Program-made: the position numbers and the translations under genes
DNA from: an uncultured archaeon
Lineage (GTDB): Archaea; Iainarchaeota; Iainarchaeia; Iainarchaeales; VGJJ01
Reading direction: 5' to 3'
NCBI GenBank assembly: GCA_964427715.1
Contig: CAYRUV010000001.1
Span: 124,125 to 188,124, forward strand
DNA: 64,000 nt
In this document: piece after piece, positions 4,701 through 60,864 of the stretch
Numbering within the stretch: position 1 is the first letter of the stretch
How the letters are laid out: every line of letters begins with the position of its first letter
The notes under the pieces: model-generated
Database searches by the model: none
The model's input: the letters and a program-made list of their open reading frames with translations, nothing else
What the model was told of the DNA's origin: nothing

Positions 4701-4972
4701 AGGGGAATCGTCTCCGCTCGTGATAACGTCCAGATGCCGTTCGTTCCTTTTAAGGGCGTGGGAAAAAATGAATGAGGGGGATCCAAATAGAATCCCCCTG
4801 CGTGAGGAGAGCGGTAAAGGCGAAAAAAGGCCCAACCTACACTCCCTTGTTCACGGGTTTTAATACCATTTTTGGTGCGACGCTCAACAAGTAAAACAAC
4901 CCTCGAATGGAGGGGCGACCCAGATTTATAAAGAGGGAACGATTGCCTTCCTCCATGAGAGGAGTGATTGGA

Positions 4973-6886
4973 ATGAATGCTAAGCCGATTCGTGGACAGG
5001 GAGCACTAGAATATTTACTATTGATTGGAGGGGCCGTCCTGGTAGGGACGGTTGTCCTGCTGATTGCGATAGGCTCCACGTCTTCCACGACGGGCATCAT
5101 CAATGATAACATTGACAATTTCACGGGTGAAATTTCACTCAATACAGCGTTTGGCGGGGGCGGCGGTCCTCCTGCTTCGGGTTGTTCCGGTGGCGCTCCG
5201 AATGGCACGTGTGATTCGGGAGAAGATAGTTCTAGTTGTCCTGCTGATTGTACTTCAGGGGCAGACAACAATCCTCCTTCAATTTCACTCTCTGCTGTTG
5301 ACACGACTGCTGGGGGACAGATTCAAGTGACTTACTCCGCAGTAGACTCAGTGTCTCCACCTACTTTGTCAGGTTTGGTCTATGATTCTTCCTTTTCGAC
5401 GATTAATGGGTTGACCTTGGCTACCTTCAATACGCATCCTAGCTATCAATTGCTTTCAACCAGTCCACTTATGGTGGGCGGGTTGACGGATGGCACGGGG
5501 TATTATTTCCGAGTCGCCTCATGTGATAGCCACTCTCCATTGAATTGTGCGTTATCCTCTACCTTTGGTCCGGTCGTTCCGACCACGGCGGGTCCGGGTC
5601 CAGCGTATTTGAGTGGTTTCACTGTTACTCCACAAGCCAACACGGCGGGTTTCGCCAATTATAATTATTCATGGACAGTCACTGATTCCCTTCCTGCAGC
5701 ATTCAAAAATCCGATTGCAGGAATTGTCCCATTAACATCTGCAGCGCCTGCCGGGTTGACCTTTGACGACGGTCCTGCCGTCACGAACAATTTCTATGCG
5801 GCACGAAACCCGGTTGCAGGGACAGCGGACGCGTTGACAGTATCGAGCGGTAATGGCACGGGAAAGATTTCCAATACGGCCATCAAGACCTTGTTAGAGT
5901 TATTTGGTGGAACGGGTGCATTTTTTGGTATTGCCTTTGAGCAGGTAGCTTTGCCTGGGAAGATGGAATTGTTTCTCCCTACTACTGCCAGTTCGTTCCC
6001 GCCTGACACGGAAGCTCCTTCCTTGGTGACATTGACGTCTGGAACTGGGGCGGGTAATGGGGGGCAGATTAGTCTGAGTTTTACCAACCCCAGCGATCAA
6101 TATCTTGGAACGACCTACACCACACCAGGTGGACTCTTGTCGAACCCCAAACAGCATGAGGTAGCGTGGTCTAATACGGCTTCGGACTTCACGGATTTCA
6201 CTACATTCAATGCGATTCCAGCCTCCCAGAAGAAGGTGAGTGTCAATGGTAATACGGCGGGCGCTCCTTGGTCTGATATCTTGAATTACAATAATGGATT
6301 GGTTCCTAGCTCTGCGGGCAACTTTGTCGGAGTCAAGGTCTGCGATCAGGCCGACACGATCACGGCGTCCATCTCTAATTGTTACGTCGTGAGTGGTGGG
6401 CCCTATACGGCCAGCAAAGAGTCAGTTAACAAGCAGTCCGAGGATCCTGCGGCTACTGTGACGTCGCTCATCTCGGACACAACCACCTACCCGGGTTTTA
6501 ATCTCTTGAAGTATTCGGGTTCTGGTTGTGGAGTTGCTGGGAGTAGTTACTCGATTCCAGTAACCTTCTTGCAACCGGCCAGCTCGGCTCCCACCTATCG
6601 TGTGTTCTTCCGTTATGGAAACCTCAATGGTGTTGGGGGTCAACGTGTCACGGCGCAGTTGGGCACAAGCAAAGCGTTTACATCACTGTCGACAACTTCA
6701 GGAACGAACCTCGTTTGGTCGAGTGCTATTTCACTTCCATCCGTTCCTGCTTCGACGAATTTGATGCTGTGGCACGGTACGTCGACTACTCCAACCTGTA
6801 CTTCAAATGTGTACATCGACCGTGTGATTGCTACCACTAGCCCGACGTGTGTTCCCACCCTGCCTGATGGGTCAGATTGTGCATAG
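4973..6886 (+). CDS. large surface protein with class III (archaeal type IV pilin-like) signal peptide
   Basis: MNAKPIRG/QGALEYLLLIGGAVLVG after SD GAGGAGTG; Cys-rich CDSGEDSSSCPADC motif; S/T/G-rich beta-strand repeats. Confidence 0.8.
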   Translation: MNAKPIRGQGALEYLLLIGGAVLVGTVVLLIAIGSTSSTTGIINDNIDNFTGEISLNTAFGGGGGPPASGCSGGAPNGTCDSGEDSSSCPADCTSGADNNPPSISLSAVDTTAGGQIQVTYSAVDSVSPPTLSGLVYDSSFSTINGLTLATFNTHPSYQLLSTSPLMVGGLTDGTGYYFRVASCDSHSPLNCALSSTFGPVVPTTAGPGPAYLSGFTVTPQANTAGFANYNYSWTVTDSLPAAFKNPIAGIVPLTSAAPAGLTFDDGPAVTNNFYAARNPVAGTADALTVSSGNGTGKISNTAIKTLLELFGGTGAFFGIAFEQVALPGKMELFLPTTASSFPPDTEAPSLVTLTSGTGAGNGGQISLSFTNPSDQYLGTTYTTPGGLLSNPKQHEVAWSNTASDFTDFTTFNAIPASQKKVSVNGNTAGAPWSDILNYNNGLVPSSAGNFVGVKVCDQADTITASISNCYVVSGGPYTASKESVNKQSEDPAATVTSLISDTTTYPGFNLLKYSGSGCGVAGSSYSIPVTFLQPASSAPTYRVFFRYGNLNGVGGQRVTAQLGTSKAFTSLSTTSGTNLVWSSAISLPSVPASTNLMLWHGTSTTPTCTSNVYIDRVIATTSPTCVPTLPDGSDCA

Positions 6887-10018: not shown

Positions 10019-12037
10019 TCACGGCTTCGGGAGGAACGTAATCGGATATCTCGCCAATTGATGGGTTACGATGCCTGGGGTTCCCATTGAAACATAGAGG
10101 AATGCCGTCTGGTCCACCGTGTTAAAGTTAGGATCCGTGGAGTCGTGGTCGATGATGGAGGGGTAGGCCACGCTGGAGGGGGATAATACCTCCACCCCGG
10201 GAGCGGTGGTTTCCGTCCAGGGCATTTTGGCAAAGGCAATGAGGGTGGATTCGTCCCAGTTAATGAGGTCCGTTGAGAGGGAGTAGTAGATTCCCGTCAT
10301 GAGTTGGGGTCCTCCAGGATTTCCCATATCCACCCATTCTCCATGCGTGCCCACGAGCATGTATTTGTTGAAGAATGTGTTAAAGGTTAGGGATGTGTGC
10401 ATCGTGGCAATATTTGGATTATTGATGGGAGTGCAGGAGTCTGGTCCGCGCAGGTCGGCGTTGAATTGTCCGCCTCCGCTATATCCTTTCCACACGGAAT
10501 CCGGAACTAATGGGGCGGGTGTACGGATGAGGCACAGCATTTGTTTTCCTGCTACATATGGATCGTCGATGACGTGGACCATGGAATAATAGTATCCGTC
10601 TTTCTCAATGAGATTCGAGTGTCCTCCATACCCAATGGCCTCAGTTGTGGGATTGAATACGAATGAATCGGGCAACGTGGCCACGCGGTATCCGGGGGAG
10701 GATGGGTTTTGGGTGTAGGTTTTTCCTCCATCCTTGGAATACGCGCTTGTGACCGTGGTGTAGGGTTGGCATACATAGGTGTTGATACACCCTGGATAGA
10801 GTGTGGGTGTCGAGTGGGCTTCGGGGTGGAATTCGTTGTGCGTGAGCATGTACACGTGTTCTTCGCTTCCGACTTTTCCTAAATAGTAGGGGGTGGATAG
10901 CCATTCTTCATCGTTGAATTTGGTGTAATCGGAGTCCCATCCCGTGGCATGGATGACTCCGTCCATGTCGAACCCTGGCAGAGTGGGGGTTGGAAATCCA
11001 TCCGGTGTGCAGTCTCTGGTGAGGGAGTCGAAATCATTCCCTGTCATGCGTCGGGAGTTATAGAACACGGAATACAAGTGTATTTTTCCATCAGCGTCCT
11101 TGAACGCGTCCGCGGCCGTGTCGGGTACATCTAGTGTTCCGCATCCGTTAGGGGCATTAAAGGGAGGGGATCCGGCATCATACACCATTTGCATGGGCCC
11201 TAACACCACGGCAGAGGGTTTGGTTTGGAGAGTGGAGGGGCTTCCTTCATTTCCGGAATTGTCGATGGCCGTGATGGCGTATGCATACGACACCCCATTT
11301 TGGAGGAGAGTGTCAACGTGAGTGGTTGTGCTGAGGGGAATGCTCAGCACGTATTCCAATGGTTTGGGTATTCCATTCTCCACGATTGCACGGTACAATC
11401 GGTACCCTTGCAAGTCGGTTTCCGTGTTAGGGTTCCAGGCTAAGGATACTTGTCCGTGTTGGGGAGTGGCTTGGAACATCGCTGGAGGAGTAGGTGGAGT
11501 GGGGTCGCTTGGATTTCCTCCATACGTGGCGGATACAATTCCGCTCACGCTGCAATTGGCGGGGGTTGCGTGGTCGCAGGCGAGGAGCTTGTAGTAATAG
11601 GTCTTTCCTGTAAGTAGGTAATAGTTGTCTGTGAATCCCGTGCTATCGTCAGGCGGCGGAGCATAATCCACTCCATTTCCCGTGTAGAGAAAAAAGGTGT
11701 TAACTCCTTTCATTTGGACCAATTTACCACTTTCATTTTCTTGCCGGGCCAAATAATAGTGGATGGGATTTTGTCCATCGATAGCTGTCCAGGAGAGCTG
11801 AATTCCTCCTGGGATTGGAACGGCGGAGAATGAGGTGATGTTCGGTCCATACGTGTCGCCGAATGCCGCTTGGTTGAGGGCGACGGTGTGGTCGTCGAGG
11901 GCTTGATTTACGAGCCCGGATTCGGTGGACGTGGAGTTTAAGAGCATGGCGACCACAATGAAAGCAATCAGTACCGCTCCCCCCATGAGGAGAGTGAGTT
12001 CGAGCGATCCTTGCCCGCGAGAAAGAGGCTTCTCCAT
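10019..12037 (-). CDS. large surface protein with class III signal peptide, Fn3-like domains and a C-terminal beta-rich (propeller-like) domain
   Basis: MEKPLSRG/QGSLELTLLMGGAVLI; Fn3 signatures (VSLAWNPNTETDLQGYRLYR; YAYAITAIDNSGNEG). Confidence 0.8.
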   Translation of the reverse strand: MEKPLSRGQGSLELTLLMGGAVLIAFIVVAMLLNSTSTESGLVNQALDDHTVALNQAAFGDTYGPNITSFSAVPIPGGIQLSWTAIDGQNPIHYYLARQENESGKLVQMKGVNTFFLYTGNGVDYAPPPDDSTGFTDNYYLLTGKTYYYKLLACDHATPANCSVSGIVSATYGGNPSDPTPPTPPAMFQATPQHGQVSLAWNPNTETDLQGYRLYRAIVENGIPKPLEYVLSIPLSTTTHVDTLLQNGVSYAYAITAIDNSGNEGSPSTLQTKPSAVVLGPMQMVYDAGSPPFNAPNGCGTLDVPDTAADAFKDADGKIHLYSVFYNSRRMTGNDFDSLTRDCTPDGFPTPTLPGFDMDGVIHATGWDSDYTKFNDEEWLSTPYYLGKVGSEEHVYMLTHNEFHPEAHSTPTLYPGCINTYVCQPYTTVTSAYSKDGGKTYTQNPSSPGYRVATLPDSFVFNPTTEAIGYGGHSNLIEKDGYYYSMVHVIDDPYVAGKQMLCLIRTPAPLVPDSVWKGYSGGGQFNADLRGPDSCTPINNPNIATMHTSLTFNTFFNKYMLVGTHGEWVDMGNPGGPQLMTGIYYSLSTDLINWDESTLIAFAKMPWTETTAPGVEVLSPSSVAYPSIIDHDSTDPNFNTVDQTAFLYVSMGTPGIVTHQLARYPITFLPKP

Positions 12038-35153: not shown

Positions 35154-35213
35154 TTCTTTTGAGAAGAAGGGCCGGTTTAAAAGCCATACGAGGGCGTCTT
35201 TTCTGTACCGGTT

Positions 35214-35286
35214 GGGGGGGTCGTCTAGCCTGGTAGGATTGCACCTTCGGGAGGTGCAGGCGAGAGTTCAAATCTCTCCTCCCCCG
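35214..35286 (+). tRNA. tRNA-Pro(CGG)
   Basis: GGGGGGG/CTCCCCC-G; GCACC-TT CGG GA-GGTGC; GAGAG-TTCAAAT-CTCTC. Confidence 0.93.
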
Positions 35287-35290
35287 CTTT

Positions 35291-35884
35291 CTATTTTTCG
35301 ATCATTCCATACTTTTTGTTCTTCTCAGTCATCTTGATGAAGTAACGCAAGCGTTGCTCCTTGACCTCTTGTCGGCCCGTGCTGGTGAGGGAAATCCAAT
35401 CAATGCGGATTTTCTTGTATGCCGCGGGGAACTTTTGAAAGTTCTTCCACACGACTGGGTTTTCCTTCAAGCGTTTTTCAATCCACGCGGGAATGACTAG
35501 TTTTCCATGGGCCTTCAAGGCCTTGTTGGCATGCTTCCTGGAAAGGTGCGCATTCCCTCCCACATGTGCCAGTCCTTCGGGTTTCATTTTTCCTTCTTTC
35601 ATTAATCGACGAATGTGTTCCATGTTCAATGCAGAAATAGGGCTTCCCTTCCTGCGCGGAGAAAAGCGTTGGGCATATTTCTCCTCATCGATTCCTTTCG
35701 CGGTGGAGTCAATCCACCCAAAACAAAGGGCTTCTTTCACCGCGTCCACGTAAGGAATTCGAGGCTTGCCCGAATTTTTCTTGTAGTAGATGAGCCAAAT
35801 CTCTTTCTTCTTCTCGTGATTCTTCTCTAACCACTTTCTCCACGCGGGAGCGTCGGTAACGTAGAGTGTTTCGCCGATGTTCAT
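35291..35884 (-). CDS. YdeI/OmpD-associated family protein
   Basis: WRKWLEKNH, EIWLIYYKK, EALCFGWIDS, RFSPRR; ATGA overlap with the OTC gene. Confidence 0.85.
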   Translation of the reverse strand: MNIGETLYVTDAPAWRKWLEKNHEKKKEIWLIYYKKNSGKPRIPYVDAVKEALCFGWIDSTAKGIDEEKYAQRFSPRRKGSPISALNMEHIRRLMKEGKMKPEGLAHVGGNAHLSRKHANKALKAHGKLVIPAWIEKRLKENPVVWKNFQKFPAAYKKIRIDWISLTSTGRQEVKEQRLRYFIKMTEKNKKYGMIEK

Positions 35885-36879
35885 TGGAGGATCGCACTCA
35901 ACAGGGCCATCTGCACGTACATCCTGTTCTTGGCTTGCGGCCAGACGAGGGATCGCTTGCTGTACATGACCTTGTCGGTAATTTCTTCTCCCTTGATGGC
36001 CGGGAGGCAGTGCATGGCTCGCACATTCTTGGCGCACTTGTCCAATAGCTTGTCATTCAATTGGAAGGGGAGGAACATTGGGCGAATCTTTTCCTTGTCC
36101 AAATGCATATGCATGCTCTCCCATTCGTCGGTGTACACCACATTCACGTGCTTCAATTCTTCCTTGGAAGGAATTTCGTGGAAGACCTTGATCTCTGCGC
36201 CTGTTTTCTTGGCGAGCTTGTGTGCGGTCGCGAGGAAGTGCTTGGATACGGGGAATTGTTTGGGAGTGGCCACCCACACATTCACGCCTAACATGGCTCC
36301 TCCCACAAGGAGAGAATCCGTGATGTTGTCGGCGTTCCCCACGTACAATAACGTAAGACCGGTGAGCTTTCCAAAATGCTCACGGATGGTGAAATAATCA
36401 GAAAGGATTTGACACGGGTGATCTTCATCGGTTAATCCATTGATGATGGGAATGTTTACGTACTTGGCAAACGCATCCACTTCCGCGTGGGGAAATACGC
36501 GGGCCATGATGGCATCGCAGTATCCTGCAAGAGTGCTGGCCGTGTCGCGCCAGTCCTCTCCTCGTCCCATTTGGGTGTTGGCCTTGTCGATAAAAGTAGA
36601 GTGTCCCCCCAAGAGTGCGATTCCATTATCGAATGAAACGCGTGTGCGCGTGGAGGGCTTTTCGAAGAGAAGCGCGACGTTCTTTTGGTGGAGAAGTTTG
36701 GGCATCTCCATACCTTGAGCGTGCATGAGTTTGAGTCGCTCGGCGAGGTGGTAGAGCATGTAGGCTTGGTGCAGGTGCGTGTCTTCGATGTTCAGGAAAT
36801 CCTTCCCCCTGAGGGATCTCAATTCCTTCGTGGCGAGTATTCGCTTGATCTCATTTCGTAATGCGGGTTCCGTTTTCAT
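35881..36879 (-). CDS. arcB: ornithine carbamoyltransferase (probably catabolic)
   Basis: FEKPSTRT, HPCQ, YTDEWESM, HCLP; overlaps the carbamate kinase gene. Confidence 0.9.
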   Translation of the reverse strand: MKTEPALRNEIKRILATKELRSLRGKDFLNIEDTHLHQAYMLYHLAERLKLMHAQGMEMPKLLHQKNVALLFEKPSTRTRVSFDNGIALLGGHSTFIDKANTQMGRGEDWRDTASTLAGYCDAIMARVFPHAEVDAFAKYVNIPIINGLTDEDHPCQILSDYFTIREHFGKLTGLTLLYVGNADNITDSLLVGGAMLGVNVWVATPKQFPVSKHFLATAHKLAKKTGAEIKVFHEIPSKEELKHVNVVYTDEWESMHMHLDKEKIRPMFLPFQLNDKLLDKCAKNVRAMHCLPAIKGEEITDKVMYSKRSLVWPQAKNRMYVQMALLSAILQ

Positions 36880-37768
36880 GGTCTAACACTCCTTGCAGTT
36901 TTCCCATTTTTCCAATGTACGAGGTCTTTCCTCCCTTTTGGACAAATCGGATGCTGGCCTCGACTTTAGGGGCCATGCTTCCCTGTCCAAATTCTCCCTT
37001 CTTCCAATAGGATTGGGCGGTCTTCAGGTTCATATGTTTGAGAGGAATGGGTTTTTTCGAGTAATAGTCCTTGTACGCGTGCTCCTCATTCGTGAGGATA
37101 GCCAACGTGTCACTCTTGAGAGAGTTGCCTAACACCTGCGCGGCGCGATCCTTATCGATGACCGCTTCAATGCCCTGGTATCCGTACGTGGTTTTGAATA
37201 CAGGGATTCCTCCTCCCCCGCATGCAATGACCACCTCATGGGCCTCTAATAATTTTTCAATCGTTTCAAGCTCAATGATTTTTTTGGGTGTGGGGGATGC
37301 AACCAGTTTGCGGTATCCTTTCTTGGGGTCGTGCATGAAGGATACGCCTTGTTTGTTCCACTCCTTGACCTGAGAAAGTCCTCCCCACGGTCCAATGGGT
37401 TTGGAGGGTTTCTTGAATTTAGGATCGTTCTTGTCCACTTCCACATGCGTAAGGATCGCGGCGGTTTCAATGGTGGGTTTCCAGTGTTTTAGTCCCATGG
37501 TGAGAAAGTGTCCAATCTGCCCCTGCGTCATTCCCACTTCCACATCTAATGGCATCGGGGGTATTTTCTTGGCGGCGTGCATTTGGATTTCTAAGTTCCC
37601 CACTTGGGGTCCGTTTCCGTGAACGATGACGATGGGAATTCCCTTGCGTACGAGGGGGATGATATCCTTCACGGCCTGTCGGACGTTTTTCATCTGCTGG
37701 GAGTAGTTCCCGATTTCATGTTCTCGTATGAGGGCATTCCCGCCAAACGCCACAATGAGGGGTTTCAT
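36851..37768 (-). CDS. arcC: carbamate kinase
   Basis: VAFGGNAL, VHGNGPQVG, KPIGP, CGGGGIPV, AVIDKD, GSMAPK. Start reassigned to 37768. Confidence 0.93.
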   Translation of the reverse strand: MKPLIVAFGGNALIREHEIGNYSQQMKNVRQAVKDIIPLVRKGIPIVIVHGNGPQVGNLEIQMHAAKKIPPMPLDVEVGMTQGQIGHFLTMGLKHWKPTIETAAILTHVEVDKNDPKFKKPSKPIGPWGGLSQVKEWNKQGVSFMHDPKKGYRKLVASPTPKKIIELETIEKLLEAHEVVIACGGGGIPVFKTTYGYQGIEAVIDKDRAAQVLGNSLKSDTLAILTNEEHAYKDYYSKKPIPLKHMNLKTAQSYWKKGEFGQGSMAPKVEASIRFVQKGGKTSYIGKMGKLQGVLDHENGTRITK

Positions 37769-37819
37769 TCCCCTGTTGAGCGTTTGGAATTTATATAGGG
37801 GGACGCCTCCCTCTTTTTC

Positions 37820-38692
37820 ATGGCCCGAAACGCTGCCCGTCGTGTCCGGATGACAATTCCCTCTACTGGAAAAGTGGTCCACGCTTCTATTATTCGCCCC
37901 TTGCCAAAGAGGGGTCGCACCTACATGACGACGCGGAACATTTCTGTCATGACTTCCGCTCAGGTCAAGTCAGTTGAGGGATTTTTGCGCCAGTTGAAAC
38001 GATTGGAGATGCAATATCGAAATCGGAGAATTTCAACCGTTGACTATGAGGTGTATCGCCATGCTCTCGAAAAAAAGTTCGTGGCCCTTACTCGAATGAG
38101 AATGGCTCAAGTGAAGCGGGTGTCAGAGCGCCACCACAAATCCGGGATGCTCTTCAATGATCGCTCATTCAAGGAGCGCGGCCGTGCATTGATGGCCCAG
38201 TCGAAGGATTTCACAGTGGCCATTTTGGATATTGACTTCTTCAAGTCCGTGAATGACACCATCGGCCACGATGCGGGGGATGCCGCTCTGGCTTTTTTTG
38301 GAAATCAAATCAATCGGGTCTCACGAGGTATGCGGGGATTCGCGGGGCGAATAGGGGATGGGGAGGAGTTTGCCGTGGCTATTCCGGGTGGAGCTATCCA
38401 CATGATTGGGTTTATTCGCACTCTGAGCAAACGCATGCAGACCCAGTTCGCGCGCGAGGAAACCACGCGGACTATGCTGCAAGGTAAGCTTCCAACCTTC
38501 AGTGCGGGGGTCGCCTTCGGCACGGAAGGGAAAAAGTTTGAGGATGTAATGAAGATTGCCGATGCGCGGGAGATTCTATCCAAAAAAGGGAGAAACCGTG
38601 TGACAATACCGCTAGGAAAAGACAACATGCCTCGAACGGTTCGTATCAGTTCCGATGAGAGCTGGTTGAAGGGCAAAGTCTCCCGTCACTAG
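37820..38692 (+). CDS. GGDEF-domain (diguanylate-cyclase-like) protein with variant RIGDGEEF loop
   Basis: AILDIDFFKSVNDTIGHDAGD, RIGDGEEFAVAIP, FSAGVA, KIAD...KKGRNRV; Arg-rich N-terminal region. Confidence 0.85.
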   Translation: MARNAARRVRMTIPSTGKVVHASIIRPLPKRGRTYMTTRNISVMTSAQVKSVEGFLRQLKRLEMQYRNRRISTVDYEVYRHALEKKFVALTRMRMAQVKRVSERHHKSGMLFNDRSFKERGRALMAQSKDFTVAILDIDFFKSVNDTIGHDAGDAALAFFGNQINRVSRGMRGFAGRIGDGEEFAVAIPGGAIHMIGFIRTLSKRMQTQFAREETTRTMLQGKLPTFSAGVAFGTEGKKFEDVMKIADAREILSKKGRNRVTIPLGKDNMPRTVRISSDESWLKGKVSRH

Positions 38693-38727
38693 ATACATTA
38701 TTATTCCGTCGGAAGTTGATTGCATCC

Positions 38728-39429
38728 ATGCGTCTCGTCTCCTTGTTTTCAGGTGGAAAGGACTCCACGTATGCCACACACTTGGCGAAATGGTCCGGCC
38801 ACGAGATTGTGTGTTTGCTATCCATGAAACCCGTGGATGCCGACTCCTACATGTTCCACACGCCCAACATTGATGCGACTGCATTGCAGGCCGAGGCGAT
38901 GGGCATTCCACTCGTGAGGGTGTACACGAAGGGAGAAAAAGAGAAAGAATTAGTGGAGCTCAAGGATGCCCTGCGTGAATTGAAAAAATCTGCGAAGATT
39001 GAAGGGGTTATCACGGGGGCGGTTTCCTCCGTGTATCAAGCCTCTCGGATTGAGCGCATCTGTCACGAGCTAGATTTGTACTGTTTCAACCCTCTCTGGC
39101 TATCCAAGCCCGAGGCGCATTGGCATGAGTTGCTATTGAATGGTATGGAGATCGTTTTAGTGCGGGTCGCCGCGCAGGGACTCGACAAGAAGTGGTTGGG
39201 CCGAACAATGGACATTCCTTCCATTCTTGCATTGCAAAATATGCACCATCATGGAGTGAGTTCGATTGGGGAAGGGGGAGAATTCGAATCCTTCGTCTGC
39301 GATGCTCCTCTGTTCAAGAAAAAAATAGTTATCGAGAAATACAAGGATGAATGGAAAGGAATGCAGGGTACGAGGCACATCCTGAAAGCCAAGCTGGTCG
39401 ATAAATCAGCGGGGAAGGGATTGAAATGA
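38728..39429 (+). CDS. dph6: diphthine--ammonia ligase (Dph6/DUF71 PP-loop ATPase)
   Basis: LFSGGKDS, SYMFH, GAVSSVYQ, PLW, GEGGEFESFV. Confidence 0.9.
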   Translation: MRLVSLFSGGKDSTYATHLAKWSGHEIVCLLSMKPVDADSYMFHTPNIDATALQAEAMGIPLVRVYTKGEKEKELVELKDALRELKKSAKIEGVITGAVSSVYQASRIERICHELDLYCFNPLWLSKPEAHWHELLLNGMEIVLVRVAAQGLDKKWLGRTMDIPSILALQNMHHHGVSSIGEGGEFESFVCDAPLFKKKIVIEKYKDEWKGMQGTRHILKAKLVDKSAGKGLK

Positions 39430-40013
39430 ACCTCCATTCCCATGTGTTAGTGGTGGATTGCTCGGATCGTGATGATTTATTGACGCGTCGCCAGTTTGTG
39501 TGGCCGATTCAGCGAAACATTCATGGATTGTCCTCCTCGATTCATCTCTCCAAATTCTCCAAGTCTTCCTTGAAGGGATTCGACGCAGTGATTTTCTCCG
39601 GCTGCACCCTCAAGGATAATGCCTTTGTTTCGCATGCGAAAAATCTCGGGTGGTTAAAGGAAGCTGGAATTCCCCTGCTGGGTATTTGTGCAGGTCATGA
39701 GTTGCTGGGGATTGTTTTTGGTGGAAAACTGGAACGATTGAAGGTCCCCGTGATTGGGATGGAAACCGTGAAGGTGGATGGGAGGAAAGCCCATGGGTTG
39801 CATTTGGAGGAAGGAGTGTTCTCCGCGTATCACTTGAATGGAAATGCCGTGTCTCTCCCGAAGGGATTCATGGGGGTGGGTCAATCCACGCGGGTGAAGA
39901 ATGAGATAATGATTCATCCCGAGTTGAAAGTGGTGGGGTTCCAATTCCATCCCGAATACATCCACGGAAAGTTCATTCAATCATTCATTTACTGGGCCGA
40001 GAAAAAGAACTAG
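39426..40013 (+). CDS. class I glutamine amidotransferase domain protein
   Basis: IFSG, LGICAGHE (nucleophile Cys), FQFHPE (His-Glu); ATGA overlap with dph6. Confidence 0.85.
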   Translation: MNLHSHVLVVDCSDRDDLLTRRQFVWPIQRNIHGLSSSIHLSKFSKSSLKGFDAVIFSGCTLKDNAFVSHAKNLGWLKEAGIPLLGICAGHELLGIVFGGKLERLKVPVIGMETVKVDGRKAHGLHLEEGVFSAYHLNGNAVSLPKGFMGVGQSTRVKNEIMIHPELKVVGFQFHPEYIHGKFIQSFIYWAEKKN

Positions 40014-40987
40014 CACGTTCCGCTAGAGGGCCAGACTTGGTAGGCGAATTGAGGAGTTCCACTCTCAGGGTCATAATATCCGCCGCCCGTAAGAGGGGAT
40101 TCTTTCTCCCATATTTCTCGGCAGTTGAATGCAAATCCACACCCTGTGCAGAATGACTTTTTCCGGCACACTTTATCGATGCCATCGAATTGGGCGCTTT
40201 CTTTCGTGATTAAATCTCTCTGGCAGAGCTGGGCGTTGATTCCTGTGAGGACCAATTCGTGTGTCTCCTCATCAAACCCTCCTCCTTCAGAGTGGGCCTT
40301 CAGGATGAGCTGGAATGTTCCAATGGTGGTGAGGGAAAGAGACACGTTCACGTTCTGGGAATCTCCCGATTCGAGGGAAGGGATGGTGGTTTCTATTTTT
40401 TGGATCTCAATGGGTTTATTCTTCCCCGCGACGATTTGGTTTTGTAGGAGTGTTGCGGTGAAGATAACATTCTCCGCCTCCACTCCTCCGATGTTGTGGA
40501 TGGTGGTCTGGATGGGGTATTCGGTGGTTCCTTGCAGGGCGAATGGACTCGTTGCGAGGGTGTTTTCCATTTCCAATTGCGCGGGTTCTTTTCCGATGTA
40601 AAGTATACACGCGTGCAGCTCGTTGAGCGTCTCGCACCTTGCGGAGAGGGTGGTTTTGATTCCCTGGTTAATTCGGATGCGATCCCCTGTGACGGAGAGG
40701 GAATAGGGGCATGATTCAAGAGAGGGGCAGCAGTTCTCTCCTGAGCAGGCGAAGGATACGTTGCGCGTGGTCGCATCGAGGTTACGAGCGTAAATCGTGT
40801 CGCCTTCTTTCAAAGTAAGAGTGACCGACGAGGTTTTTCCTAGGGATGCTTGGGCCTCCAACAATAATGCGGGGGCGTGCTTCGCAAGGGCCGTTTGGGG
40901 GGTGAAAAATGAGGCGAAGTTAAAGAAAAAAACCCCTATCAGGGCGATGGCCACAATGGCCACGAGGAGAAGATTGAACACGTTCAT
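40010..40987 (-). CDS. membrane-anchored CARDB/Ig-like Cys-rich surface protein
   Basis: N-terminal TM; TTIHNIGGVEAENV, IPSLESGDSQNV; several Cys pairs; ATGA start at 40987. Confidence 0.7.
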   Translation of the reverse strand: MNVFNLLLVAIVAIALIGVFFFNFASFFTPQTALAKHAPALLLEAQASLGKTSSVTLTLKEGDTIYARNLDATTRNVSFACSGENCCPSLESCPYSLSVTGDRIRINQGIKTTLSARCETLNELHACILYIGKEPAQLEMENTLATSPFALQGTTEYPIQTTIHNIGGVEAENVIFTATLLQNQIVAGKNKPIEIQKIETTIPSLESGDSQNVNVSLSLTTIGTFQLILKAHSEGGGFDEETHELVLTGINAQLCQRDLITKESAQFDGIDKVCRKKSFCTGCGFAFNCREIWEKESPLTGGGYYDPESGTPQFAYQVWPSSGTC

Positions 40988-41226
40988 CGTTTGAATCCCC
41001 ATTTGTATTGGAGCATGAGAAGTTTCTTGAGTACGAAGGCAATAATGAGGCCGAACGCCGTGACCACGATCAAGTCTTCCCAATCTCCCGTGCGCAGGAA
41101 GTAGAGTCGTTGCTTGATGACAAACTCATCGATGGCCAAAAGAAAAATGACCACCAGTCCAAACGCCAGGATGAATAATCCGATGCGCATGAATTGGCTC
41201 AGTATGCGGATGAGGGTATTCTTCAT
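40984..41226 (-). CDS. small 2-TM membrane protein
   Basis: Two hydrophobic helices; overlaps the lig stop and the next start. Confidence 0.6.
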   Translation of the reverse strand: MKNTLIRILSQFMRIGLFILAFGLVVIFLLAIDEFVIKQRLYFLRTGDWEDLIVVTAFGLIIAFVLKKLLMLQYKWGFKR

Positions 41227-57506: not shown

Positions 57507-58154
57507 TCAGCAGGCCAGCAATTGATTGAGGGTGCTCTTGCTCTGCACGCCCTCGTAGACCTTTTCCCCAATCACTAGCGAGGGGGTTTTCTCAATGGAG
57601 TAATCCTTCACCAACAAGTCCACCGGCTCAATGCCCCCTTCCACGGGGAATGCGAATATTTGGATTTGTTGATGGCACGAGTCGCGTATCTCATTGAGTA
57701 TTTGCGCCTGAATCAAACACTCGTTGCAGTTCGCCCCGTCCGGGAAGAAATACAAAATAGGCTGCTTGAGGGCATTGGATTCCGGACACTTGTATTCGAA
57801 TTTTTTCAAAGAGAAATACAACTTTGCATTGGCAGCTTGGAATCGCTGGCGCACGGTGGAGTAATCGTTCTGCAGTCCATTCTGTCTCGCCTGGTCCAGT
57901 AAACTCAATAGGGGAAATAGTCGTTCATTCTGCTTCTGGATGTGCTCCGTGAGCACTTCACAATACCGCTGCGTGTCGCCGGTGGACTCGATGTATTCTA
58001 AGTAGGCATCCACGGCCCCCTCTTCCGCAATCACGGTATCAATTTTCCCCAAGAGGGTGTTGTTGCGCTCCCCTTCCAATGCGGTAGATAGAAGGAACCA
58101 CGCCGTGAGGATGAGGAGGGTGAGAATCCCTGCACGTACAAATAGGTTTACCAT
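57507..58154 (-). CDS. membrane-anchored thioredoxin-fold protein
   Basis: N-terminal TM; ILYFF...CNEC..QAQIL; YSIEKTPSLVI; 7-nt overlap with the GT2 gene. Confidence 0.72.
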   Translation of the reverse strand: MVNLFVRAGILTLLILTAWFLLSTALEGERNNTLLGKIDTVIAEEGAVDAYLEYIESTGDTQRYCEVLTEHIQKQNERLFPLLSLLDQARQNGLQNDYSTVRQRFQAANAKLYFSLKKFEYKCPESNALKQPILYFFPDGANCNECLIQAQILNEIRDSCHQQIQIFAFPVEGGIEPVDLLVKDYSIEKTPSLVIGEKVYEGVQSKSTLNQLLAC

Positions 58155-59458
58155 TTTTGCACCCCTCCTCGAATGGCATTCACTAAACTATACACTTGGA
58201 TGAATACGATAAAGGCCCAATACACGCTGAGGAAGAGCAATACCCCTGCGAGGGAAATGTTCTGGACCTTTGCCCCCGCGGCGCGGGTGCCCATGTAGGC
58301 TAACAAGAGCGTAATTCCCACAATCATCAAGTAAAGGAAAAGGTGACTGTTCAGGTAGAGCGTGGGCACTACCAGGGTTTCGAATGCGATGGTGGAATAC
58401 GAGGATACCGTTCCCCACGCTGTGTGCCAGTATTCCAATCCCATTCTCACGGCGAGCATGAGGAAGAGAATCGCAGACAAGTCTAGCACCACGCGCAGGG
58501 GGAAGAAGAATCGGAAGAATAGTTTTTTCGTGGAGAACATCTCGCTGCGGTACTTGTAGATCGTCTGCCACCCCCCATAGGCCCATCGCTTGCGCTGGCG
58601 GAATAATTTGTTGATCGTGTCCGGGACTTCCGTGAATACTTGGGCGTGTGGCTCCAGTACGACACGATATCCTAGTTTGTGTAAGTGGAAGGTGATTTCC
58701 ATATCCTCCGTGATGTTGTGCTCGTCATACCCTCCCATTCTCACTAATGCCTCTTTCGTGTAGGCGGATAGGGGTCCCGGCGTCACGTATAATGAATCCA
58801 TCGTGTTGAGGGCGGAATTCTTCAGTCCAAATTCGAGGAAGTATTCCACTTCCTGTATTTTTTGAAGCAACCCATGGTTGTTCTTCACGCGTACAATCGT
58901 GGTGACCGCACCCACATTTTCAAATGCATAGAAGTTGGGGATAAGTTTCATGATGGCATCCGGGGACGGATACGAGTCTCCGTCCATCGCCACGACGATT
59001 TCCCCCTTGGCTTTCTGGAGGGCGGTATTAATCGCGCGGGCTTTTCCTTGGTTCTTTTCAAACCGAATGAAATCGATTCCTTTTCCCTTGAAGTCTTTTA
59101 CAATCTCGGGGGTTTGGTCGGTACTGGCATCATCTACAACCATGATTTGCATTTTTTTGGGATACTCCAATTTGGTCACGCACTCCAAGCAGCGGCGCAA
59201 ACTCTCTCCTCGGTTGAAGGCTGGAATGATGATGGAGACGGTGGGCCACTCCTTGATTGTGGGAATCGCTTTCTTGTCTCGCTCCATATATGCGAGGAAG
59301 AAGAAGCATCCCATGTAGAGGAACAATACGGAGAACGTAATCATGATGGGAAACAAGGGGAGGGTAAACACAACCCATGTTACCACGAGGGCGAAAGCAA
59401 AGTATAGGGTGAGTGCGGCGGCCTGCCATTTGGAGAATTCGGTCTTGAATTCCTTCAT
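58148..59458 (-). CDS. processive family-2 glycosyltransferase (PgaC/HasA/CesA-like)
   Basis: IIIPAFN, VVDDASTD, GKA.AIN, MDGD, TPGP, ITED, QRKRW; TM helices at both ends. Confidence 0.88.
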   Translation of the reverse strand: MKEFKTEFSKWQAAALTLYFAFALVVTWVVFTLPLFPIMITFSVLFLYMGCFFFLAYMERDKKAIPTIKEWPTVSIIIPAFNRGESLRRCLECVTKLEYPKKMQIMVVDDASTDQTPEIVKDFKGKGIDFIRFEKNQGKARAINTALQKAKGEIVVAMDGDSYPSPDAIMKLIPNFYAFENVGAVTTIVRVKNNHGLLQKIQEVEYFLEFGLKNSALNTMDSLYVTPGPLSAYTKEALVRMGGYDEHNITEDMEITFHLHKLGYRVVLEPHAQVFTEVPDTINKLFRQRKRWAYGGWQTIYKYRSEMFSTKKLFFRFFFPLRVVLDLSAILFLMLAVRMGLEYWHTAWGTVSSYSTIAFETLVVPTLYLNSHLFLYLMIVGITLLLAYMGTRAAGAKVQNISLAGVLLFLSVYWAFIVFIQVYSLVNAIRGGVQKW

Positions 59459-59532
59459 ACCAAGACCTGCGAAGGGGTGTTTTAATGGGTTTTGGGTTGA
59501 GCGTCGAAAAATGGGCCTATTTGCGAGTCTAT

Positions 59533-60864
59533 TCACTTCGTGAATGCGCTGGCTGTAACCCCGCCATCCCACGTCGTACGGGGTCTCATTTTGATGGTGT
59601 AGATGGATTCAGCGTTATCATCCAGTAGGAGGGCGTATCCTTTCCCCCTGGGCATTTCAGCATACAGCTTGTCGAAGTCCCCGTGCATGTAGGAGGGTCT
59701 CAATTGTGACACGGCCATGATGTCATCCTGCGCGGTCATGCGGTGGGAGATGAACAAATCACACTGGGAAATGGCATCCGGGTGAAGCTTGTTGGGTCGT
59801 TGCGTCGCTAACACCAGACTTAATCCAGGCTGTCTTCCGACACGGACCCACTCTAACAAAATGTTCAATGCGATGTTGGGTTCGTCTTTGGGCATGAACA
59901 TGTGGGCTTCATCAATCATCAACCAGACAATAGGCATCGAAGATTCTCGTCCTAGACCCTTCATCAATCGAATTTCTTCCTCTTTGCGGTAGAGCATTCG
60001 TTCTTCGAACAATTTCTTTCCCAATAATCCCACAATAATGTCCTTCGTCCCTTCCATCCCAATTGCTTGGCGATACGCCGATACATCGATGACGGTGATG
60101 GTGCCGGCTTGGGCGATGTCCATCATTTTCGTTCCTTCTTTCTCTAGCAAACCCCACCCCTTGGCCATTTCGATTCGATTCTTGAGCGCCTGTTGCGTGA
60201 GCTTGTCCGATTCCGGGTCGCGGGTAATCGCTTGGATGATATCGTCCATTCCGAATCGAGTTCCCAATTGTTCCTTCAACTGCTCCAACACCCTTCCTAG
60301 CAGAATGGCCTCGGGGTCGTGCCACGTGTACCTAAACAGGGCCATCCATTCCGTGATGTCCAACTCACTACAACGAAGCGTGAGGGGTGCGTCTACGGGG
60401 ATTTGCTTCTCGGTGTAGAAGTCCATCTTACCTTTGGGAACCAGGATGCGCACCGGCGTGGCTTCGGGGGTTAATCCCCATTCCGCGAGTTCCTTTTCAT
60501 TTCCCCGCGTGGGCACCTTTAACGTCCAAAATATCCCCACCATGTCAATCACAATCACGGAGATTCGTCGTTTCATCTCGGGCTTTAACTTGGCGAATTC
60601 TTCAATCATGACTCCCATGGAGTAGGATTTTCCCCCGCCGCGCTTTCCGCAAATCAACACCACGTGGGGTTTGGCTGCGTCCATCAATACTTTTCGTCCC
60701 AGCACTGGGTTTTCCCCCGAGGACATGACGACTTTCCCAATGTAGGCGGTTCCTTCCTCTCCATATTTCTGGATGTCCCCCTGCGTACGCCCAACGATGG
60801 TATTCTTGGCCGCGAAGTCCACGTTCACGGAGTTATCGGTCATGCTCTCGAGGAAAGACCCCAT
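59533..60864 (-). CDS. HerA/FtsK/VirB4-superfamily (DUF87-like) ATPase
   Basis: Walker A GKRGGGKS, VIDMVG, Walker B LMIDEAH, RVGRQPGLSLVLATQRP. Confidence 0.85.
   Translation of the reverse strand: MGSFLESMTDNSVNVDFAAKNTIVGRTQGDIQKYGEEGTAYIGKVVMSSGENPVLGRKVLMDAAKPHVVLICGKRGGGKSYSMGVMIEEFAKLKPEMKRRISVIVIDMVGIFWTLKVPTRGNEKELAEWGLTPEATPVRILVPKGKMDFYTEKQIPVDAPLTLRCSELDITEWMALFRYTWHDPEAILLGRVLEQLKEQLGTRFGMDDIIQAITRDPESDKLTQQALKNRIEMAKGWGLLEKEGTKMMDIAQAGTITVIDVSAYRQAIGMEGTKDIIVGLLGKKLFEERMLYRKEEEIRLMKGLGRESSMPIVWLMIDEAHMFMPKDEPNIALNILLEWVRVGRQPGLSLVLATQRPNKLHPDAISQCDLFISHRMTAQDDIMAVSQLRPSYMHGDFDKLYAEMPRGKGYALLLDDNAESIYTIKMRPRTTWDGGVTASAFTK

Follow-up and report, generated by a model that had tools for sequence, protein, structure and literature searches.

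A native GGDEF-domain gene of Candidatus Iainarchaeum with an extra aspartate in its signature hairpin, a conserved active site and a history of apparent cassette replacement

Proteins with a GGDEF domain have been described from archaeal isolates and, in 20 cases, from metagenome-assembled genomes (MAGs), mainly of DPANN lineages; some of them are short and contain the GGDEF domain only (PMC13725321, Mol Microbiol, Sept 2026). Three proteins have unconventional motifs or insertions near the signature, and two haloarchaeal proteins read GQGDEF, with one residue between the glycines (PMC13725321). Regarding their activity, two of the short GGDEF-only MAG proteins gave a weak, motif-dependent signal (lowered) in a Vc2 riboswitch reporter, and the GQGDEF and RYGGDKGDEF proteins produced no catalysis-dependent phenotype in three in-vivo assays; the questions raised by that work concern the co-occurrence of phosphodiesterases, the identity of the receptors and whether evolution is faster in archaeal GGDEF domains (PMC13725321). 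The gene treated here belongs to the same field: it lies in a stretch of 64,000 nucleotides (nt; hereafter, the window) from contig CAYRUV010000001.1 of the uncultured archaeon assembly GCA_964427715.1, and it encodes a GGDEF-domain protein, the window protein, with one additional residue in the signature hairpin. The initial annotation of this DNA had regarded signalling by cyclic di-GMP (c-di-GMP) as essentially bacterial, a view made outdated by the published archaeal and DPANN proteins; as both the presence of such genes and this kind of insertion have been reported (PMC13725321), neither is new in itself. Instead, a single-copy slot kept throughout a lineage, the orphan status of the gene and its replacement as a cassette have, as far as found, no description in the literature searched.

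The assignment of the window protein to the GGDEF family is clear. It matched PF00990 with an E value of 4.4e-19 and 69.3 bits (cut-off 23.8) over residues 112-250, and TIGR00254 with an E value of 6.7e-20 and 71.5 bits (cut-off 37.4); in a sequence search it matched 46 solved GGDEF chains, with DgcB (6tts) at the top (E 1.8e-14). With both profiles above their cut-offs and an archaeal genome around the gene, the initial annotation, which had proposed a GGDEF protein in an archaeon and Pfam as the way to confirm it, holds in this respect. Its reading of the motifs was accurate too: residues 137-154 are DIDFFKSVNDTIGHDAGD, SAG stands at residues 228-230 and GRN at 257-259, and the DIDxFKxxNDxxGHxxGD, SxG and GRN elements are all kept. 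The DxLT wide turn is replaced by HHKSG, as had been noticed, and the family as a whole shows only degenerate forms of this motif (DPxL, DSKF and HHQTP among them). Likewise, the inhibitory site (I-site) RxxD, located five residues before the signature, reads GMRG in the window protein, in agreement with the annotation, and is absent from every family member aligned.

As for the signature itself, the HMMER alignment to DgcB and WspR pairs GRIGDGEEF with ARYG-GEEF, and because a one-residue gap is needed in both bacterial proteins at that residue, the insertion of D180 is real; what is a contiguous GG[DE]EF hairpin in the canonical proteins is here G179-D180-G181 followed by E-E-F. How far the insertion extends was established with orthologues taken from 25 genomes (26 sequences aligned) and nine more from protein collections. 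The G-D-G form occurs only in the window protein, in a strain with 98.7% identity (P0001) and in a relative with 78% identity (P0002), while the remaining family members, more than 30, are canonical and read RxGGEEF or RxGGDEF; hence, the one-residue insertion RIGDGEEF singled out by the initial annotation is confirmed against DgcB, WspR and the entire family bar two carriers, but it is a local quirk of D180 and not a defining feature of the family. The window protein and P0002 also have in common a C-terminal tail that the alignment finds elsewhere only in the allele of genome G007. In addition, the spacing between the conserved lysine and GRN (SKK-GRN) falls one residue short of that in most A-type relatives (class A is one of two deep allele classes described below), with K255 and R258 kept; the same shortened spacing from K to RN exists in the G025a and G037 sequences, both of which are canonical GGEEF proteins.

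The comparison of the window gene with that of P0002, at a synonymous divergence (dS) of ∼0.9-1.1, gave ratios of nonsynonymous to synonymous substitution rates (dN/dS) of 0.053 for the GGDEF domain, 0.026 for the C-terminal tail and 0.26 for residues 1-110. Since dN/dS is low between two diverged carriers, the insertion allele is being maintained and is not decaying; from the alignment, the extra Asp appears to have arisen once, on a canonical A-type background, and to have been held since then by strong purifying selection within its allele lineage. Inside other allele lineages of the family, dN/dS ranges from 0.06 to 0.18.

The residues of the active site are present in the window protein, namely D137, D139, N145, D154, R177, E182, E183, K255 and R258. 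Among the columns without any change in an alignment of 16 sequences, 18-78% identical to the window protein, are D137, D139, F141, N145, G153, R177, G179, G181, E183 and K255; E182 is nearly invariant in the family alignment. These invariant columns correspond to the residues that bind metal, base and phosphate in PleD-type cyclases: the equivalents in PleD are D327 and E370 as metal ligands, E371 as the catalytic residue, N335 and D344 for reading guanine, and K442 and R446 for binding phosphate. Accordingly labelled, the window protein has both guanine-reading residues (N145 and D154) and the metal and catalytic ones (D137, E182 and E183). The Ser that takes the place of the guanine-reading Asp in Hypr (cGAMP-type) enzymes was found neither in the window protein, which has D154, nor in any of the family members aligned.

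Two departures from this pattern occur among the B-type members, carriers of the other deep allele class. In G001, G003, G004, G005, G006, G016, G022 and P0249-P0251, DxDxFK..ND becomes DxDxFG..NK, a paired change that would shift the lysine by one helical turn and that can be read as compensation; in five members (G001, G002, G003, G005 and G016) the guanine-reading Asp at position 154 is Asn, so that GHxxGD becomes GxxxGN, with GGEEF kept, and the base preference of these proteins may be altered. Taken together, the conserved ligands and the paired change speak for a functional active site, rather than a pseudoenzyme, in the family as a whole, which, with catalytic ligands invariant at 18-40% identity, appears to be a maintained enzyme. 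For the protein encoded by the window allele in particular, activity is uncertain and is put at somewhat likelier than not.

Regarding the region before the domain, the AlphaFold2 (AF2) model of the window protein has a mean predicted local distance difference test (pLDDT) score of 83 and a predicted template modelling score (pTM) of 0.76, with residues 1-38 below a pLDDT of 50; the GGDEF fold extends over residues 114-264, with block-mean pLDDT values of 84-97, and the tail adds a predicted strand (271-275) and a helix (281-285). When this model was submitted to Foldseek, the best matches were structures in which a coiled coil or stalk is joined to a GGDEF domain, namely 6ttr (DgcB, target-normalised TM-score 0.79), 3i5c (WspR) and 7e6g (SiaD); overall it matched more than 140 PDB chains at E ≤ 0.001, and its target-normalised TM-scores against isolated GGDEF domains were 0.75-0.83. 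The NCBIfam model of SiaD (NF038266) spans residues 47-261 of the window protein, that is, stalk and domain. Given the fold matches to DgcB, WspR and SiaD and the coverage by the SiaD model, the N-terminal helices are best read as a dimerisation stalk, and such a device is presumed here from the model.

The initial annotation had described the N-terminus as an Arg-rich leader followed by a SHOCT-like helix. The leader stands: it is predicted to be disordered, and basic leaders exist in all A- and B-type family members. The SHOCT part is weakly supported: the segment of the window protein has no match to SHOCT (PF09851), and three relatives gave weak SHOCT or DUF1707 matches at the turn G-x-I-[ST]-x-x-E-[YF], all of them below threshold (E 0.005-0.27, 11-17 bits, cut-off 27). 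No signal peptide was found in the window protein.

The family is a regular component of its lineage. All 17 genus members gave exactly one GGDEF match apiece, as did the single genome from the sister genus, and matches were also present in 6 of the 23 other families sampled in the order; at the level of the phylum, GGDEF occurs in 69 of 215 Iainarchaeota genomes and 31 of 79 genera, with one or two copies each. In nearly all genomes of the genus the gene occupies the same slot, divergent from a carbamate kinase gene and followed in its own direction by the genes for a diphthamide-synthase-2-type PP-loop protein (DphSyn2) and a class-I glutamine amidotransferase (GATase); in other families of the order it is located beside GatE. 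The search of 1.84 billion representative proteins with the family profile returned ∼12 full-length clusters (at 50% identity), the rest being ordinary bacterial GGDEF proteins, and the nearest sequences outside the family are bacterial GGDEF proteins with 30-40% identity over the domain. A phylogenetic tree separated 24 Iainarchaeal sequences from 12 bacterial outgroups with 99/98 support, with one exception, the GGDEF protein of G024, which groups with the bacterial sequences. On viral contigs no family member was detected, the best match having 37% identity and covering the domain only, and a contig scan with a three-sequence alignment, which relied on generic DIDFFK-type patterns, recovered bacterial loci only.

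That the gene is native to an archaeal genome, of Candidatus Iainarchaeum within DPANN, follows from its surroundings. The assembly that contains the window measures 898 kb in 19 contigs, is 85.6% complete and 0.8% contaminated, and the window falls within a contig of 288 kb with even GC; orthologues named by NCBI in the same GTDB genus belong to Candidatus Iainarchaeum (QQR92438.1, from a closed genome of 1.05 Mb) and Candidatus Diapherotrites. A stretch of 31.6 kb is collinear between the window genome (G000) and a sister genome (G011), a separate ENA assembly is 98.7% identical across window positions 37701-39214, and the same gene order was found in a relative from Hainich groundwater, in three independent assemblies. 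With archaeal neighbours on both sides, even GC, this collinearity and the independent assemblies, the contig is not chimeric, a point that the initial annotation had left to be verified.

Transcription of the gene can be read from a promoter element that it has in common with its relatives. The TATA box is located 22 nt before the ATG of the GGDEF gene (37820) and 21 nt from that of the carbamate kinase gene (37768, minus strand); the 17-mer that contains it recurs, equally far from the start codon, in ∼15 of the 17 members of the genus, and the 898-kb genome has a single copy of the extended motif. Identity to the P0002 contig is 100% over the 50 nt upstream, against 75.6% for the coding sequence, and the proteins of relatives in the databases start at the equivalent Met. 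Because the TATA spacing, the conserved leader and the database starts agree, the Arg-rich N-terminus is translated; judged by its spacing, the promoter would give a leaderless GGDEF transcript, which probably includes the PP-loop and amidotransferase genes. As a side observation, the single TATA box is near-palindromic and could serve both divergent leaderless genes (37766-37820), with a purine-rich stretch resembling a transcription factor B recognition element (BRE) on the GGDEF side only.

Downstream of the TATA box, the locus has a history different from that of its flanks. Between the window genome and the sister genome, protein identity is 94-97% for the flanking carbamate kinase, ornithine carbamoyltransferase (OTCase), PP-loop protein and amidotransferase, and 36% for the GGDEF protein; nucleotide identity is 83-99% in the flanks (mostly >90%) and 40-61% inside the cassette. 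Identity to the sister genome stops after ...TTTATATAGG, the sequences differing from 37800, and resumes exactly at the next ATG (38728), which in the sister genome follows the GGDEF stop codon by 6 nt. The synonymous divergence from the sister genome is 1.43 in the gene and 0.31-0.46 in the flanks, and since an acceleration in place cannot explain this contrast, the segment must have had a separate history. The other open reading frames (ORFs) in the 31.6 kb of collinear sequence are 75-99% identical over their aligned lengths; across the genomes, the 601 syntenic ORF pairs (from 699 kb of the sister genome) have a median identity of 97.3%, with no pair between 40 and 50% and 17 below 40%, the GGDEF pair among them.

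Other pairs of genomes repeat this pattern: between G000 and G007 the flanks are 84% identical and the gene 43%, and between G013 and G005 the values are 85% and 28%, respectively. The tree of the GGDEF proteins resolves the two deep allele classes, A (support 95/91) and B (99/99); the phylogeny of the flanking genes is incompatible with A carriers forming a clade (approximately unbiased test, p-AU 4e-49), and the GGDEF data in turn reject the clade defined by the flanks (p 5e-54). The simplest account is that homologous recombination has exchanged the cassette between lineages and that old alleles have survived. As an observation the allele swapping is well established; either selection or chance may lie behind it.

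Six other positional orthologues have only 27-40% identity to those of the sister genome, with both flanks above 80%. Among these six, two are similar to methyltransferases dependent on S-adenosylmethionine (SAM) and a third encodes the 'B' membrane partner within a surface module; several of the replaced orthologues open with Arg-rich leaders (MPPRSLRSRLRSMRK..., MARSPLSQRKPPASIRR... and MVLNNRARRAIQKSKK..., with start codons as predicted). A net charge of at least +8 in the first 35 residues was found in 4 of the 7 replaced orthologues, GGDEF included, against 17 of the 552 conserved ORFs (Fisher p 5e-5, post hoc); over the whole class of ORFs with <56% identity, the enrichment of basic leaders was not significant (Mann-Whitney p 0.06-0.12; Fisher p 0.08). 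Finally, hhalign found no similarity between the N-terminus of the GGDEF protein and the swapped basic-leader protein encoded at C2:52255-52851.

With regard to the partners of c-di-GMP known from bacteria, EAL was found in none of 41 genomes, PilZ in none of 41 and MshEN in none of 21, the window genome being 85.6% complete; HD-GYP was found in 2 of 41 (G022 and G024), both from other families of the order and not from this genus. The survey of EAL, HD-GYP, PilZ and MshEN proposed by the initial annotation thus returned none of the four for this genome or genus. The two HD-GYP (PF13487) genes are located at G022:C16:6153-6410 and G024:C47:7972-8388 (L097 and L098), and both genomes also have a GGDEF gene; in G024, a whole bacterial-type module may have been acquired. 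The search for c-di-GMP-I riboswitches in 21 genomes gave no match, and the control genomes gave none either; the Rfam search of the window returned tRNAs only.

The initial annotation had also pointed to a processive family 2 glycosyltransferase (GT2) and to pilin-like genes in the window. These exist, the GT2 at 58148-59572 and two pilin-like genes with class-III signals at 4907-6886 and 10019-12037; a link to the GGDEF gene was not upheld, and a functional tie was ruled out, as all of them are at least 20 kb away and the Pfam scan found no PilZ domain in the GT2. As regards other nucleotide systems, three genomes of the genus encode, ∼3 kb from the GGDEF gene, a protein of ∼230 residues with a DAC domain (c-di-AMP synthase type, Pfam E 2e-14) and a hydrophobic C-terminus; the loci are L103 7686-8480 (G001:C18, ∼113.1 kb), L107 (G004:C14:1985-2311, minus strand) and G009:C16:1525-1848, and in G001 the gene lies between those for the OTCase and a major facilitator superfamily (MFS) transporter, the site of an OmdA-like ORF in the window. 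No DAC match was found in the window genome. PADLOC, run on the protein, two relatives and three neighbours, returned only a marginal match to the Cas10 palm (E 0.006, 13 bits).

The explanation that fits these data best, and that is held with moderate confidence, is that the gene encodes a native, stand-alone nucleotide cyclase of Iainarchaeum, made of a basic tail, a two-helix stalk and a GGDEF palm. Judged by its active-site residues, the product is most likely c-di-GMP, which would make the protein a diguanylate cyclase. The messenger would be transcribed, without a leader, from the strong and conserved BRE/TATA element, probably together with the next two genes; two chains would pair via the stalk, and their GGDEF domains, each loaded with GTP, would be brought opposite one another, the 3'-OH of either substrate attacking the alpha-phosphate of the other to give c-di-GMP. 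Since the protein has no RxxD I-site, feedback inhibition by the product is not expected; the product would be sensed and removed by something other than EAL, HD-GYP, PilZ or MshEN. Outside the invariant ligands the protein evolves fast, and the whole gene, from just behind the TATA box up to the next start codon, has been exchanged between lineages through homologous recombination, which has left the deep allele classes A and B, and the deep sub-lineages of A, spread over the genus regardless of genome relatedness.

Several points weigh against this explanation. The hairpin of the window allele is one residue longer than the canonical one, its K-to-GRN spacing is shorter and the wide turn has lost its Asp. 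Dimerisation through a hairpin stalk is a proposal. Purifying selection would be expected also on a protein that binds GTP or acts as a scaffold. In Salmonella or E. coli, no cyclase activity was apparent for the archaeal GQGDEF and RYGGDKGDEF proteins, although other signature residues are also changed in them (PMC13725321, sections 2.11 and 2.14). Without a known phosphodiesterase or receptor, the signalling loop cannot be closed. As for the replacement, the differential loss of old tandem paralogues could mimic it; yet no genome of the genus holds two copies, and this makes the alternative less parsimonious.

Alternatively, the allele lineage of the window could be a catalytically dead derivative that binds GTP or serves as a scaffold, its longer hairpin misplacing the substrates, a reading that is considered unlikely. 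The GDG in the catalytic turn, the shortened K255-x-GRN and the lost Asp all agree with it, as do the GQGDEF and RYGGDKGDEF precedents without a catalysis-dependent phenotype (PMC13725321) and the failure to find an enzyme that degrades the product or a receptor for it. However, all the metal, base and phosphate ligands are kept, whereas degenerate GGDEF receptors usually lose them or keep the I-site, which is missing here; the dN/dS of 0.05 holds across the domain, active-site residues included; the shortened spacing recurs in the canonical G025a and G037 and is therefore not diagnostic of decay; and the haloarchaeal precedents had further signature residues changed. If the enzyme is active, the additional acidic residue at the tip of the hairpin might instead alter its chemistry, giving linear pppGpG, a mixed dinucleotide or a changed need for metal. 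Such a change would fit with the position of the inserted Asp, which adjoins the metal-binding E182 and E183 and is kept in both diverged carriers, and with the Asn that replaces the guanine-reading Asp in five B-type relatives, a sign that the family explores its base-recognition pocket; but the window protein itself retains N145 and D154 for reading guanine and lacks the Hypr Ser, and an altered product is considered improbable.

The cassette replacement also admits a reading in terms of conflict, in which the protein takes part in antiviral signalling or acts as an effector on a host or partner cell, and frequency-dependent selection keeps the old alleles. In its broader form, the cyclase would be one of a small group of cassette-swapped, old-allele loci, several of them tagged with basic leaders and including the genes similar to SAM methyltransferases and that for the surface module's membrane partner; it would take part in defence against viruses or in interactions with a host cell, a proposal that we regard as speculative. 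The gene does belong to the 17 of 601 syntenic pairs below 40% between genomes that are ∼97% identical; the replacement is precise, allele classes and genome tree disagree, no internal receptor of a known type was found, and the post hoc excess of strongly basic leaders among the replaced orthologues (4 of 7 against 17 of 552, p 5e-5) points the same way. Against this, PADLOC returned nothing beyond the marginal Cas10-palm match, no effector gene is adjacent, the neighbours are housekeeping genes and the protein has no signal peptide; no family member was found on viral contigs, and selection within the allele lineages is of the purifying kind and gives no hint of an arms race. The three options of the initial annotation, an altered-product cyclase, a GTP-sensing pseudoenzyme and an effector aimed at a bacterial partner, all keep some probability, with the invariant catalytic set favouring an enzyme. 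The swapping of alleles lends some indirect support to a role in conflict or towards a partner, and nothing points to a bacterial partner; overall, a conflict system is judged quite unlikely. Lastly, the presence of bacterial DNA in the bin, as a chimeric contig or a recent horizontal transfer, is hardly conceivable. It could appeal to the bacterial GGDEF proteins that are the best matches outside the family (30-40% over the domain), but the gene is in the middle of a 288-kb contig of even GC, among archaeal marker genes and behind an archaeal TATA box at leaderless distance, it occupies the same slot in at least 17 genomes and at least three independent assemblies, and its family is separate from the bacterial outgroups.

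For the native cyclase favoured here, the locus answers, for one phylum, questions left open by the archaeal survey (PMC13725321): there is one copy per genome in the genus, GGDEF is present in a third of the Iainarchaeota genomes, and the partners tested were not found in the genus. On the question of a different or faster evolution of archaeal GGDEF domains, it shows a catalytic core held constant, against divergence of the remaining protein down to 25-40% identity and an exchange of entire alleles from one lineage to another. The insertion allele of the window, the 78%-identical insertion allele and the canonical alleles share identical genomic contexts and constitute a natural experiment; a comparison of their activities would bear directly on the capacity of a GxG hairpin for cyclisation. 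If selection and not chance lies behind the swapping, a dinucleotide cyclase would have a role in conflict or recognition in DPANN archaea, and if the conflict reading were true, this would be the first known case in an archaeon of a cyclic-dinucleotide cyclase that behaves as an immunity or self/non-self locus.

The remaining features of the neighbourhood are of a more general kind, and the coordinates are collected in Table 1. The other neighbours identified with Pfam are GatE with a GAD insert, an MFS transporter, an ATP-dependent DNA ligase and a prolyl-tRNA synthetase (ProRS) with ProRS-C_1. A functional tie to the carbamate kinase and OTCase was ruled out, since in other families of the order the GGDEF gene adjoins GatE and lacks arc genes beside it, which makes the conservation of GGDEF next to the arc genes positional. 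Compared to window positions 35154-35290, the sister genome has ∼1.8 kb of extra sequence between the MFS and OmdA-like genes (G011:C3 8208-9999); in the relative G007 this slot contains a PIN-domain gene and small ORFs, and the variable slot adjoins tRNA-Pro (35214-35287). On the minus strand, positions 40010-41083 encode a Cys-rich protein of 357 residues with an N-terminal hydrophobic segment and no Pfam match; its position is kept across the genus, and its sequence is moderately variable, with an identity of 91% in G011, 58% in G007 and 34-42% in the others.

Table 1. Coordinates of the GGDEF gene, its parts, its neighbours and the replaced orthologues (window positions, except for the last row, which gives contig positions in the window genome G000)
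Feature	Position	Strand	Evidence and remarks
GGDEF protein gene	37820..38692	+	ORF, 290 aa, pI 11.2; Pfam, TIGRFAM and PDB matches
Basic Arg-rich N-terminal tail, residues 1-42	37820..37945	+	AF2 pLDDT 33-47; predicted disordered
Predicted helical hairpin ('stalk'), helices 43-67 and 73-102	37946..38125	+	AF2 pLDDT 76-98; carries the motif G-x-I-S-x-x-[DE]-Y
GGDEF (palm) domain, residues 112-264	38153..38611	+	Pfam, TIGRFAM, AF2; dN/dS 0.053 vs P0002
Signature hairpin RIGDGEEF, residues 177-184	38348..38371	+	Inserted Asp180 is codon GAT, 38357-38359; GAT also in P0002
C-terminal tail, residues 265-290, ending ...SSDESWLKGKVSRH	38612..38692	+	Alignment; dN/dS 0.026; AF2
Conserved promoter element TTTGGAATTTATATAGG (17-mer)	37783..37799	+	TATA box TTTATATA at 37790-37797; read from sequence
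Swapped cassette: spacer after TATA box, GGDEF ORF and 3' spacer	37800..38727	+	Only stretch radically unlike G011
Carbamate kinase, divergent neighbour	36851..37768	-	Pfam AA_kinase; 97% to G011 over the tblastn-aligned part
OTCase, beyond carbamate kinase	35881-36879		Pfam OTCace; 95% to G011 over the tblastn-aligned part
Diphthamide-synthase-2-type PP-loop protein (MRLVSLFSGGKDS...)	38728-39429	+	Pfam; 94% to G011
Class-I glutamine amidotransferase	39426-40013	+	Pfam; 94% to G011
Six replaced orthologues, G000	C1:102041-102742; C1:115175-115723; C1:271244-271834; C2:52255-52851; C7:22624-23487; C9:15651-16349	-; -; -; -; -; +	

Among the systems already described, the short GGDEF-only MAG proteins (KHO53289.1, KHO53915.1 and others; PMC13725321) are alike by description, as they have no sensor domain and come from verified archaeal contigs; the accessions found for the family of the window protein are different from KHO53289.1 and KHO53915.1, and the published study does not describe lineage-wide synteny, absence of partners or allele replacement. 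The haloarchaeal proteins GGDEF_KLK7 and GGDEF_E3 (PMC13725321) are archaeal and short, with an extra residue where D180 sits; they differ in that other signature residues are changed, an additional domain is present at the C-terminus and no catalytic phenotype was obtained, whereas the window protein keeps the other signature residues. Given the canonical relatives of the window protein, a shared origin of the GQGDEF and D180 insertions seems unlikely.

PleD and WspR can be aligned with the window protein over DxDxFK..ND..GH..GD, R-x-G..G-E-E-F and K..GRN; both possess receiver domains, the DxLT wide turn, the RxxD I-site and contiguous glycines, four features that the window protein does not have. 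Closer to it is SiaD of Pseudomonas aeruginosa (7E6G; NF038266), which is activated by SiaC: residues 47-261 align with its model (E 1.1e-19), it is the third-ranked fold match, and it has a similar size and no sensor domain. Nonetheless, the score of 70.8 bits is far from the equivalog cut-off of 290, and no SiaABC partner genes are nearby; by analogy with SiaD, activation of the window protein by a partner protein is a possibility. As for DgcB from Caulobacter crescentus (6TTR/6TTS), this enzyme has the canonical RYGGEEF and was crystallised with c-di-GMP bound, while in the window protein the signature reads G-D-G, the RxxD is missing, two helices forming a hairpin are predicted in place of one long helix, and a basic tail of 42 residues is present; the likeness between the two consists of a helical stalk directly before the GGDEF domain and of the same metal, base and phosphate ligands.

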